IMG/VR virus record: IMGVR_UViG_2731957997_000009
DNA from: a virus
Lineage: Duplodnaviria > Heunggongvirae > Uroviricota > Caudoviricetes
Length of the DNA: 8,924 nt
Reading direction: 5' to 3' (one strand)
This document shows positions 1 to 3,000 of this stretch, piece after piece. A program made the position numbers. Each line of letters opens with the position of its first letter. The first letter of the stretch is position 1.

Positions 1-3000
1 GAAAGTTGATTTTCAAGAACCGTTCTGACAGCTTCGGCTTTGAACTCTTTAGAGTAACGTTGGGTTTTTCTGCTCATTATTAGCTCCTTCTGATGCCATT
101 CTATTTCAGGAAGGAGTGTCCGTTAAACTCAGGCTACCTCAAGCCCTGTTTATGGCGCTCAGGAGCCAGCGCCCACCTGCCGGGCTAATCCACCACTCTG
201 ATCGAGGTTCACAGTACTGCGCATACGATTACCGGGTCATACAGGAGCAGTCTGGTCTGAAAACATCAATGTCGCGTAAAGGTAACTGTTACGACAACGC
301 TCCGATGGAAAGCTTCTGGGGAACGCTGAAAAATGAGAGCCTGAGCCACTATCGTTTTAATAACCGGGATGAAGCCATCTCAGTAATACGGGAATACATT
401 GAGATTTTCTACAATCGTCAGCGTCGTCACTCTCGTCTGGGGAATATCTCCCCGGCAGCCTTCAGGGAAAAATATCATCAGATGGCTGCTTAAAAAAAGA
501 ACAAATGGTAGTGTCCGCTATTGCCAGTACACCTCAGGGTGTTTGTCCACACCAAACCTGCCTACCGAAGCGACGGAACAAAAACAGCAGCGGTAAGGAA
601 GATGAGAACCGACAGCAACAAGGCATGGAAGGGAGCGTTAAAGCGGGCAGGCATTAGCAACTTCCGCTTCCATGACCTGAGGCATACCTGGGCAAGCTGG
701 CTGGTTCAGTCCGGTGTCTCTCTTCTTGCGCTTAAAGAGATGGGAGGATGGGAAACTCTCGAAATGGTTCAAAGATACGCCCACCTTTCAGCCGGGCATC
801 TTACCGAGCACGCGAGCAAAATCGATGCGATTATAAGTCGCAATGGCACAAATACGGCACAAGAGGAGAACGTAGTTTACTTAAATGCGAGGTAACTTAT
901 TGATTTAAATGGTGCCGATAATAGGAGTCGAACCTACGACCTTCGCATTACGAATTATAAGAATCCGCTTGTAATTCAAAGGATTATCCCATCAACACTG
1001 CGCTCACACGTCCCACCACATCAAAACATGTAAAGCCTTGCAAGCCATTGTGAGGCCTTATGTGTCTCAGTTTTGTCTCATCAGACATAGCAAGTATCGA
1101 TCAATTGAGACTTGGATGATAGACTTCATGCCTTTCAGAGCTCATTGATTAAATAAATGTTAAAGTTATTTGTAAAGTACACATCTATAGGTGTGCTGAA
1201 CACACTTATACACTGGGTGGTTTTTGGTGTATGTATCTATGCCGCACATACCAGTCAGGCTCTGGCAAACTTCACAGGTTTCGTAGTGGCTGTGAGCTTT
1301 AGCTTCTTCGCGAATGCAAGATTCACATTCAAAGCATTGACTACAGCGATGCGCTACATGTTATACGTGGGATTTATGGGAATATTGAGTGTGATTGTTG
1401 GTTGGGCAGCTGATAAATGCTCACTTCCTCCAATAGTCACTCTTATCACCTTCTCCGCCATCAGTCTGGTGTGCGGTTTCGTCTATTCAAAGTTCATTGT
1501 CTTTAGGGATGCGAAATGAAAATATCTCTTGTCGTTCCTGTCTTCAATGAAGAAGAAGCGATACCTGTTTTCTATAAAACGGTACGTGAATTCCAAGAGT
1601 TGAAGCCATATGAAGTAGAAATTGTATTCATAAATGACGGAAGTAAAGATGCCACAGAGTCAATTATTAACGCGCTGGCTGTTTCAGACCCGCTAGTTGT
1701 TCCGCTGTCATTTACACGCAACTTTGGTAAAGAACCAGCCTTATTTGCAGGGTTAGACCATGCAAGCGGCGATGCTGTAATTCCTATTGATGTCGACCTG
1801 CAAGACCCAATTGAGGTTATCCCTCATCTTATTGAAAAGTGGCAGGCAGGTGCTGACATGGTGCTTGCTAAACGTTCAGACCGCTCAACTGATGGACGAC
1901 TGAAACGTAAGACAGCTGAGTGGTTCTATAAATTACACAACAAAATAAGCACCCCAAAGATCGAGGAAAATGTCGGAGATTTTCGACTCATGTCTCGTGA
2001 GGTTGTGGAGAACATTAAACTGTTGCCTGAGCGCAATCTTTTCATGAAAGGCATACTGAGCTGGGTGGGTGGTCAGACGGATGTCGTTGAATATGTACGC
2101 GCAGAGCGTGTTGCTGGCATCTCAAAATTTAATGGCTGGAAATTATGGAATCTGGCACTGGAAGGTATCACAAGTTTTTCAACCTTTCCTCTTCGCGTAT
2201 GGACTTATATAGGCTTGTTTGTTGCAAGCATTTCATTTTTATATGGTGCATGGATGATTATAGACACCCTTGTCTTTGGTAACCCAGTACGCGGGTATCC
2301 CTCCCTGCTTGTATCAATACTTTTCTTGGGTGGAGTGCAACTGATCGGGATTGGTGTTCTCGGAGAATATATAGGTAGAATCTATATTGAAGTAAAAAAT
2401 AGACCCAAATACATCATAAAAAAATCTCATCGAGGTAACCCATGATTAAAATTAATTTATTTAAAAATGCAAATCTCCTTGCCTTCATATCATGTTTTGC
2501 AATATCAATTTATTGTTATTGGGGGTGGTTGTACGATGGAACACTTAATATTGATGGCGAGTTTACAAATAATTTTTATCAAACAATCACGCTTGGGCGG
2601 TGGTTTCACACTTTTTTGCGACATTACTTTCTCCCTGAGCCTTTTTCACTTTATATAACACCATTAATAGCCTTATCTTTTATCATCATTTCAGCATTTA
2701 TAATCTGCAGATCGCTAAAGCTAGAATCTTATGAATTATTGATAGGTATGTTAGTATTTATTACCTTCCCTCAGATCTCCTATCAATTAGAGTTTCTTAA
2801 CCAAGCTGATACTGTGGGAATTGCTTTTCTACTGGCAGCGATATCAGCAATTATTTTTCACTCGCAAAAAAATAGGATTGTGATATTTTCTGGTATAGTA
2901 CTGTCCATTCTTTCAATGGCAATCTACCAAACATTCGTAACATATATTATTGCATTCGTCATTGGGTTGCAGATAAATTCGATAATACGAAATGAGAAAA

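Follow-up and report, generated by a model that had tools for sequence, protein, structure and literature searches.

The 46-nt core sequence at the centre of this study has been published as the attP core of phages SfI, SfII, SfV and SfX (PMC3636060). Sun et al. 2011 (BMC Microbiol 11:269; PMC3306764) found that the attL of a resident SfX serves as the integration site of SfI, and in the SfI-SfX tandem lysogen 036_1d (PMC3306764, Additional file 1 panel F) the junction between the two prophages reads gtrA P arm, 46-nt core, 19-bp block and SfX-type integrase 3' end. In their serotype Y host, what comes after thrW is an SfII-type 'putative phage int' rather than an SfX-type remnant (PMC3306764), so the resident partner differs between lineages. 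A stacked lysogeny outcome of this kind is ordinary and already documented, and the locus described here is another example of a known phenomenon.

We analysed a stretch of 8,924 nt, called the window throughout. It is the right-hand end of the SfII serotype-converting prophage, now decayed, of Shigella flexneri 2a, and what is left of the integrase of an earlier phage adjoins this end at the same tRNA-Thr gene. Compared with S. flexneri CP026788.1 (locus L006), there is 1 mismatch in 8924 bp, which places the window in the IS600-flanked proA-thrW...adrA region of the S. flexneri 2a chromosome. Copies of the segment sit in the proA-adrA region in every complete genome sampled, and one genome has two of them, 12 kb apart. 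The junction between the two elements is very probably the SfII attR, produced by integration of SfII next to an older element at thrW. It is a free-phage attachment site in appearance only: it looks like an attP because a resident integrase gene occupies the usual place of host DNA.

Table 1. Features of the window, with the evidence for each.
Feature	Position	Strand	Evidence
IS600 copy 1, left end, leftward-pointing	1..141	-	Reverse match to left end of complete 1264-bp IS copies, e.g., L010 6972-6832
IS600 copy 2, 3' 396 bp (orfB end and right inverted repeat)	141..536	+	Pfam rve, rve_2 and rve_3 on ORF 116-493
Integrase remnant, SfX/HK542/mEpX2 type (last 119 codons and stop of a 386-aa gene)	537..895	+	Identity and Pfam
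19-bp block GTAACTTATTGATTTAAAT, common to SfX-type and SfII-type att sites	891..909	.	Invariant columns of alignment A1
46-nt att core, thrW 3' end including CCA	910..955	-	Exact match to ARAGORN-called thrW
SfII P arm up to gtrA, also in SfI	956..1156	+	100% to SfII KC736978 and AF021347
gtrA	1157..1519	+	Pfam GtrA_DPMS_TM; SfII_29
gtrB, bactoprenol glucosyltransferase	1516..2445	+	Pfam Glycos_transf_2; SfII_28
gtrII, type II-specific glucosyltransferase	2442..3902	+	Pfam Glucos_trans_II; SfII_27
ISSfl9 (IS4-like), element limits approximate	4150..5600	-	Transposase ORF 4292-5482, SfII_26; Pfam DDE_Tnp_1
Acyltransferase, putative oacD of SfII	5933..6982	+	Pfam Acyl_transf_3; SfII_25 acyltransferase
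Tail-fibre assembly gene and 3' part of tail-fibre gene, SfII	7755..8811	-	Pfam Caudo_TAP and Gp53-like_C; collinear with SfII_24 and SfII_23
IS600 copy 3, right end, inverted relative to the copy at 141-536	8821..8924	-	Self-match of 433-540 to 8924-8817

Some entries in Table 1 need a word on naming and context. The IS copy at L010 6972-6832 is annotated as IS3-like element IS600 on Shigella plasmids. In the window, the IS600 copy at 1-141 abuts an internal position of the second copy, and a further IS600 cuts the SfII tail-fibre gene. We checked whether the segment could be an IS600 composite: the left copy is without its first ~870 bp in the window and in L006, so these do not contain two complete copies, whereas L010 and other strains have two complete inverted ones, and complete IS600 copies are present at related loci. 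The name of the IS4-like ISSfl9 comes from annotation in E. coli genomes, and the free SfII phage genome has ISSfl9 too. The acyltransferase gene is taken to be oacD, a name given by position and from the literature, where the SfII prophage carries oacD (PMC8973906).

The original prediction held that the integrase is truncated by an IS, and the element proved to be IS600, which cuts the gene at 536/537. The right inverted repeat of the IS ends at 536 (...ACACCTCA); the fragment starts at the next base, 537, and runs to a TAA stop at 893-895. Translation of 539-895 gives 118 aa with a match to Pfam Phage_integrase (E 5e-19), and because this match covers profile positions 101-170 of 172, only the C-terminal part of the protein is represented; for comparison, the HK542 int CDS is 1161 bp. 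In other strains, the same IS600/int junction and core adjoin the arms of SfI (gtrI) and SfIV (gtrIV), with the gtrI strain matching SfI at 99.9% from the same breakpoint and the gtrIV strain matching SfIV at 100%. One and the same IS600-cut remnant therefore lies beside SfI, SfII and SfIV arms, which means that it was resident and does not depend on which phage came in. It represents the P' arm of an older element already present at thrW.

Next to this remnant, 910-955 is identical (46/46, including the CCA) to the 3' end of thrW, which ARAGORN calls as tRNA-Thr(CGT) at L006 5899-5974, and the ARAGORN-called thrW genes of loci L010 and L011 end in exactly the same 46 nt. The probability that 8.9 kb would contain such a 46-mer by chance is negligible (about 1e-24). 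The tRNA is tRNA-Thr(CGU) thrW, on the minus strand of the window, and its CCA end (910) is 15 bp from the last base of the integrase stop, just as predicted. ARAGORN found 0 tRNA genes within the window, hence none overlapping 910-990, and Rfam at a permissive threshold gave nothing significant in the window (best tRNA-clan match, E = 4). Phage P-arm sequence stands in place of the thrW 5' half (alignment A1), and a functional tRNA-Thr gene is ruled out, since neither ARAGORN nor Rfam finds a full cloverleaf. The original prediction was thus right about the order of integrase 3' end, tRNA-Thr core and gtrA (537-895, 910-955 and 1157) and about the missing tRNA 5' half.

The two arms around the core come from different phages. 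Relative to phage SfII (KC736978, AF021347), the core, P arm, gtrA-gtrB-gtrII, ISSfl9, acyltransferase and tail-fibre genes are collinear, with 27 of 7929 positions differing over window 892-8820 (99.7%) and 100% identity over 892-1200. However, the integrase of SfII itself, on its P' side, shares only about 67% identity with the window fragment (537-891), and the junction is therefore attR-like (P-O-foreign) rather than P-O-P'. The integrase fragment instead belongs with SfX, HK542, HK75, mEpX2 and mEp213 (the 'type CP4-6' site), whose integrase 3' end and core are 98.1-99.0% identical to the window (98.6-99.0% over 537-955 for SfX, HK75, HK542 and mEpX2). These phages have the same target tRNA and core, and annotation records the similarity of the site to thrW and ptwF, but their integrases are full length and their P arms are unrelated to that of the window.

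Where one arm gives way to the other can be read directly from the alignments: similarity to the SfX type extends as far as 955 and similarity to SfII begins at 892, placing the switch inside a 65-bp block (891-955) that is present in both attP types. Across the six att sites of alignment A1, exactly 19 bp plus the 46-bp core are held in common, and the flanking arms assort independently. No phage record spans both arms at 80% or more coverage. Because its arms have different origins, the junction is not the attP of one phage. The P arm also contains a terminator-like hairpin (1035-1069), which corresponds to a terminator annotated in SfII; a scan of this arm for sigma-70-like promoters found none, and a search for short repeats in 850-1160 gave nothing meaningful.

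The inter-prophage junction of 036_1d follows the same order as the window and differs from it, in PDF-extracted text, by 5 positions over 292 nt (4 gap positions and 1 mismatch). In 036_1d the incoming phage is SfI (gtrI) and the resident SfX is intact, whereas in the window the incoming phage is SfII (gtrII), the resident integrase is an IS600-cut 119-codon stub, and both prophages are largely deleted and rearranged. Comparable arrangements exist in E. coli, where 32 of 5426 complete genomes have an SfX-type int, core, SfII-like P arm, cargo, pinE and tail fibre. The E. coli tandem thrW junctions (e.g., CP063511, CP024232) are 97-98% identical over window 537-1082 and are also without the tRNA 5' half, but in place of gtr they carry Avs2 or a type II restriction-modification system as cargo. 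In CP063511, the integrase is intact and part of a complete-looking lambdoid prophage.

The original prediction proposed a search beyond the left IS for a second core copy and phage genes, and the source genome has an intact thrW and an SfII-type integrase there. Immediately left of the window, L006 contains proA, the intact tRNA-Thr(CGT), the 3' part of the SfII-type int and IS600, with thrW and this integrase (the attL) about 2.5 kb away in CP026788.1. At L010 the block beside thrW has the gene order of the SfII left end (int-xis-SfII_32-SfII_33) and is collinear with it. There is also a third core copy, with an SfII-type int on one side and an SfX/HK542-type P arm on the other: the core is followed by 259 nt of HK542-type P arm and then oacB. 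This third hybrid junction is of the reciprocal type, the kind predicted by a stack of elements. The three core copies in their chromosomal context, like the resident remnant, are direct observations. The int beside thrW shares only 97.8% identity with that of the sequenced SfII and is chimeric in 2457T, so the history is more tangled than a simple three-step stack.

From this arrangement we infer an integrase-mediated exchange, an order of events and an IS600-mediated inversion. An SfX/HK542-type element would have integrated at the thrW 3' end to give thrW-core-int(SfX type), its integrase then being cut by IS600. The SfII attP, int(SfII)-core-P arm-gtrA, would later have recombined via the common core with the intact thrW copy. 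The expected product is thrW-core-int(SfII)...SfII genome...gtrII-gtrB-gtrA-P arm-core-int remnant(SfX type)-IS600, and the window would be its second junction. IS600 copies would subsequently have deleted most of SfII, leaving about 2 kb at attL and 7.9 kb in the window. The junction core is inverted relative to thrW in the source genome, so at least one later inversion must be assumed, and we suggest that in the source strain an 8.3-kb segment between two inverted IS600 copies was flipped.

The orientation of the segment varies between strains. We rejected the idea that an integrase inverted it between core copies, because each junction keeps its arms from strain to strain and the end points fall within copies of IS600 or int. 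One inversion between the two SfII-type int copies, as the step relating the L010-type and 2457T-type arrangements, was also rejected: it fits the chimeric int but not the duplicated IS600/xis(177) junction. The original prediction further stated that the element cannot excise on its own. This is reasonable, given a 119-codon stub and a prophage that is mostly deleted, but the integrase is not the one that belongs to this prophage.

Two readings of the junction had been offered at the outset, a phage-form attP and a hybrid site between tandem elements, and it is the second that is supported, by the attL beyond the left IS. A true attP would mean a free, circular or unintegrated phage genome, or else a chromosomal copy kept in the attP configuration. 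The core and P arm are intact, and the int-core-gtrA order is that of the SfII, SfI, SfIV and SfX phage maps. Even so, we find a true attP scarcely credible: the arms are from different phage lineages in a combination that occurs in no phage record, the integrase is a stub cut by IS600, the same stub flanks three different gtr phages, and in all the complete genomes sampled the DNA lies in the chromosome, between proA-thrW and adrA. It is also very improbable that the segment came from a mosaic gtrII phage whose integrase module was of SfX type and which entered by a non-att route (e.g., by capture or as an IS600-flanked composite) and so kept its attP unsplit. Lambdoid phages are mosaic, and the inverted IS600 copies bracketing the 8.3-kb segment, its variable orientation and its duplication in one genome would all suit such an entry. 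However, the identical IS600/int breakpoint beside SfI and SfIV means that the same mosaic and IS insertion would be needed three times, and the copies found all lie in the proA-adrA region. In addition, thrW has its own proper attL in the form of a separate int-xis block of SfII type, and the left IS600 is truncated in the source strain, so there is no transposable unit there.

The stack could be real and its junction nevertheless be the work of RecA-dependent homologous recombination, acting in the 65-bp block or by replacement of the gtr cassette. In the latter version, an incoming phage could have exchanged its cassette with a resident prophage via the conserved gtrA/gtrB and tail-fibre flanks. 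The homology for this is ample, since SfI, SfII and SfIV hardly differ in the P arm, gtrA and the 5' part of gtrB, and the chimeric int in 2457T represents homologous exchange between repeated phage genes in the region. We nonetheless judge a RecA route unlikely, because integrase-mediated insertion at a resident attL has been shown directly in this system with the same sequence (PMC3306764), because a proper SfII attL is present, and because 65 bp is a poor RecA substrate relative to the att reaction. Within the 65-bp block, an integrase-mediated exchange and homologous recombination would leave the same sequence; integrase-mediated site-specific recombination is the likely route of SfII insertion.

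The SfII attR may belong to a larger structure. We tentatively propose, as a reading that could well prove right or wrong, that the proA-adrA region is a fossil stack of at least three successive thrW integrations, with the IS600-cut SfX/HK542-type integrase and core as a landing pad common to SfI, SfII and SfIV. The same proposal makes the oacB 'transposon-like structure', reportedly described by Wang et al. in 2014, the attR end of a thrW phage with SfX/HK542-type att arms. Mobilisation of oacB by IS elements from the Sf101/sbcB locus has been suggested, and the attR reading would differ from that suggestion. A search for the empty site that the model predicts, without a gtr phage (thrW 5' half...core...int remnant...IS600), gave 0 matches in genome and metagenome contigs, collections that hold almost no S. 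flexneri; in the same collections, the occupied-site control pattern was matched by only two genomes in the genome contigs and by none in the metagenomes.

The practical lesson is that an 'attP-like' order of int, core and cargo in a chromosome is not necessarily a sign of a free or unintegrated phage. When each arm is compared separately to phage attP regions, the seam between stacked elements shows at once. The finding has little importance beyond correct annotation, but it does document the same resident remnant as the border of the gtrI and gtrIV clusters, and it places the type II serotype genes (gtrA, gtrB, gtrII and oacD) on a non-excisable, IS600-bracketed remnant, which is consistent with the stability of serotype 2a.

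The arrangement from which this analysis started, i.e., an integrase 3′ end, a 46-nt tRNA-Thr core and gtrA with no whole tRNA, is borne out by Pfam, ARAGORN, Rfam and identity to a called tRNA. The ORF at 539-895 matches Pfam Phage_integrase only over profile positions 101-170 of 172, and the fragment represents the final 119 codons of the phage HK542 integrase (386 aa). The core is identical to the 3′ end, including the CCA, of the tRNA-Thr(CGT) gene (thrW) called by ARAGORN in related chromosomal loci, and its CCA end lies 15 bp from the integrase stop. Within the window, ARAGORN called no tRNA and a permissive Rfam scan found nothing significant.

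Features of the window and the three junctions carrying a core copy
Feature	Position	Orientation	Remarks
IS600 copy, left end	1-141	reverse	
Second IS600 copy, 3′ 396 bp	141-536		right inverted repeat ends at 536; adjoins first piece
Integrase fragment	537-895		
tRNA-derived core, 46 nt	910-955	minus	
Non-coding, 201 bp	956-1156		
gtrA	1157-1519		
gtrB	1516-2445		
GtrII-family gene, 486 aa	2442-3902		
ISSfl9, IS4-like	~4150-5600		between gtrII and acyltransferase; transposase ORF 4292-5482
Acyltransferase, 349 aa	5933-6982		
Tail-fibre assembly gene and 3′ part of tail-fibre gene	7755-8811	minus	
Third IS600 copy, right end	from 8821	inverted	
J1			intact thrW and SfII-type int
J2			window junction
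J3	17631-20449 in CP012137.1 locus (L010)		complete 387-aa SfII-type int, core, SfX/HK542-type P arm, oacB; also in CP026788.1 (L006) and 2457T (L011) loci

The two sides of this core come from different phages. Window 892-8820, which includes the gtrA side (the P arm), differs from the complete genome of the serotype-converting phage SfII (KC736978) at 27 of 7929 positions, whereas SfII int shares only ~67% identity with window 537-891. Instead, window 537-955 is 98.6-99.0% identical to the int 3′ end plus core (the P′ arm side) of SfX, HK75, HK542, mEpX2 and mEp213, and these matches end where the core ends. We found no phage record spanning both sides of the junction. We also aligned six att sites (the window, the SfII and SfX attPs, the thrW-int junctions of two strains, and the int-oacB junction): all six share exactly GTAACTTATTGATTTAAAT plus the 46-nt core (window 891-955), and outside this block they form discrete arm types that assort independently on each side. 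Because the arms differ in origin, both in these identities and in the six-site alignment, the sequence makeup of the junction is that of a hybrid site, P arm(SfII)-core-P′ arm(SfX/HK542 type), and not of one phage's attP.

The setting is chromosomal. Exact look-up of GtrII led to complete Shigella flexneri chromosomes, and the window has one mismatch in 8924 bp against CP026788.1 and two against CP106857.1. The CP026788.1 order is proB, proA, intact thrW (5899-5974 of the locus), SfII-type int, IS600, truncated IS600, integrase stub, core and gtr genes, and the thrW-adjacent int there consists of the 3′ 509 bp including the core (97.8%). In CP012137.1, the thrW-adjacent block is collinear with the SfII left end: int (interrupted by IS600), xis, SfII_32 and part of SfII_33. 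The SfII prophage thus has its genuine attL just past the left IS, and phage genes and a second core do lie there, where the original prediction had proposed looking for them. Each locus has three core copies. In J3, the P arm is 95-98% identical to the SfX/HK542 type for ~260 nt and is followed by oacB, which is 99.4% identical to that of phage Sf101; the J3 xis is cut by IS600 at an identical point in all strains. As hybrids, J2 and J3 have opposite compositions, exactly the residue that successive integrations at one tRNA would be expected to leave.

The stub behaves as a resident of the locus. An exact look-up of the 124-aa ORF across the IS600/int junction found it adjoining not only gtrII but also gtrI and gtrIV clusters, with a nucleotide-identical IS600/int junction in all three contexts. 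From the equivalent of window 892, the breakpoint seen with SfII, the gtrI and gtrIV contigs are 99.9% identical to SfI and 100% identical to SfIV, respectively. Since the same IS600-cut remnant borders three serotype-converting phages, it cannot belong to SfII. IS600 and the stub also lie upstream of gtrA in 10/10 complete 2a contexts (sampled through GtrA).

These results bear on the available explanations. The original prediction favoured a phage-form attP, as in a free phage genome, and this is excluded by the heterologous arms and chromosomal context; the alternative it also named, a hybrid site between tandem elements, proved right. Capture of a mosaic phage by IS600 is improbable: the stub and breakpoint are identical beside three phages, and SfII has a proper attL. 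Judging from sequence alone, homologous recombination could also have made the junction, though this is less likely, either within the 65-bp block or by cassette replacement via gtrA/gtrB and tail-fibre homology, but this would alter only the enzyme and not the nature of the junction.

Recombination between SfII and thrW beside an older element is the best-supported account of the hybrid site. An SfX/HK542-type element would already have been behind the intact thrW copy when SfII attP recombined with that thrW via the shared core, giving thrW-core-int(SfII)...gtrA-P arm-core-int remnant(SfX type). The window junction would be attR in an excision reaction, where the non-phage side would require only core-type sites. 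IS600 copies would afterwards have deleted most of the prophage, bracketing the remaining 8.3 kb in inverted orientation. We infer both that the original event depended on integrase and in what exact order the steps took place.

Later rearrangement is visible between S. flexneri 2a strains. The 8.3-kb gtrII segment (window 537-8820) is in 'native' orientation to proA-thrW in 2457T and in the opposite orientation in CP026788.1 and CP012137.1, yet the arms at each junction are constant from strain to strain, so the inversions went via IS600 or int repeats and not via the cores. The thrW-adjacent int of 2457T (17630-18987 of its locus) is a chimera of two SfII-type alleles, with oacB-linked int variants at reference positions 183-993 and the thrW-linked int variants of other strains at 1103-1447; homologous exchange between repeated int genes therefore occurs. 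2457T also has the IS600/xis junction twice, inverted, around the gtr segment.

The IS600 pieces in window 1-536 are joined head-to-internal, the second copy lacking its first ~870 bp. This abutment is also present in CP026788.1 and one further locus (L004), but not in CP012137.1 or 2457T, which suggests that an IS600-associated deletion took the 5′ part of SfII int together with xis and two early genes in the window's lineage. The free SfII genome has ISSfl9 at this same position, which makes the IS part of the phage itself. Directly after the acyltransferase stop is a perfect 32-nt palindrome (AAAAAGGCGCAATTAATTGCGCCTTTTT, window 6982-7013), which matches a terminator annotated in SfII.

Other genomes contain variants of the region. 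CP058589.1 (S. flexneri, 355473-374891; L024, L025) has the IS600-int stub-gtrA-gtrB segment twice, ~12 kb apart, with no gtrII ORF called in one copy and gtrB and gtrII lengths off by one residue in the other. In CP055138.1 (L005 17764-21461), a second gtrA-gtrB-gtr(421 aa) cluster comes after the SfII-type int and core that elsewhere precede oacB; it may be of SfX type, in a strain resembling 2b. CP012735.1 (L016 620-3788) is a further rearrangement variant: its IS600-interrupted SfII-type int and xis are joined to oacB-core rather than thrW, and its stub-side gtr cluster includes a gtrB of 306 aa and a more extended series of tail and baseplate genes. CP178302.1 (L034, 4.44 Mb, 'Escherichia coli strain ECMA0423') carries the 2a gtrII segment at 99.95%, including the IS600-stub junction, and may be a Shigella labelled E. 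coli.

Neither the phenomenon nor the locus is new. When an SfX lysogen was lysogenised with SfI, junction sequencing showed that SfI had entered at the SfX attL, so that the two prophages stood in tandem between proA and yaiC (Sun et al. 2011, PMC3306764). In Additional file 1 (panel F), the junction sequenced between the two prophages reads gtrIA arm-core-intX; taken as PDF-extracted text, it differs from the reverse complement of window 871-1180 at 5 positions (4 gaps, 1 mismatch) in a 292-nt alignment. The 46-nt core has been published as common to SfI, SfII, SfIV, SfV and SfX (PMC3636060). Previous work also placed gtrIIBA and oacD on an SfII prophage in the proA-adrA interval, and oacB upstream of adrA on a 'transposon-like' element with an integrase and insertion sequences at its flanks (PMC8973906, PMC4159516). 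J3 looks less like a transposon than like an attR end left by a phage that integrates at thrW. What may be new is the proposal that oacB lies at the attR of such a phage, of SfX/HK542 type, with the stub as a common landing pad.

Of 5426 complete E. coli genomes, 32 have an SfX-type integrase, core and SfII-like P arm in one contiguous run. In the two examples inspected (L013 6001-11257 and L014 6001-9747), a lambdoid prophage int abuts a second prophage's arm with no tRNA 5′ half at the seam. Where gtr would be, the cargo slot contains Avs2 (AVAST type 2) or a type II restriction-modification pair, and pinE and tail-fibre genes come next. Stacking of thrW prophages with attP-like seams is thus recurrent, and the slot adjoining attP seems to accept exchangeable cargo.
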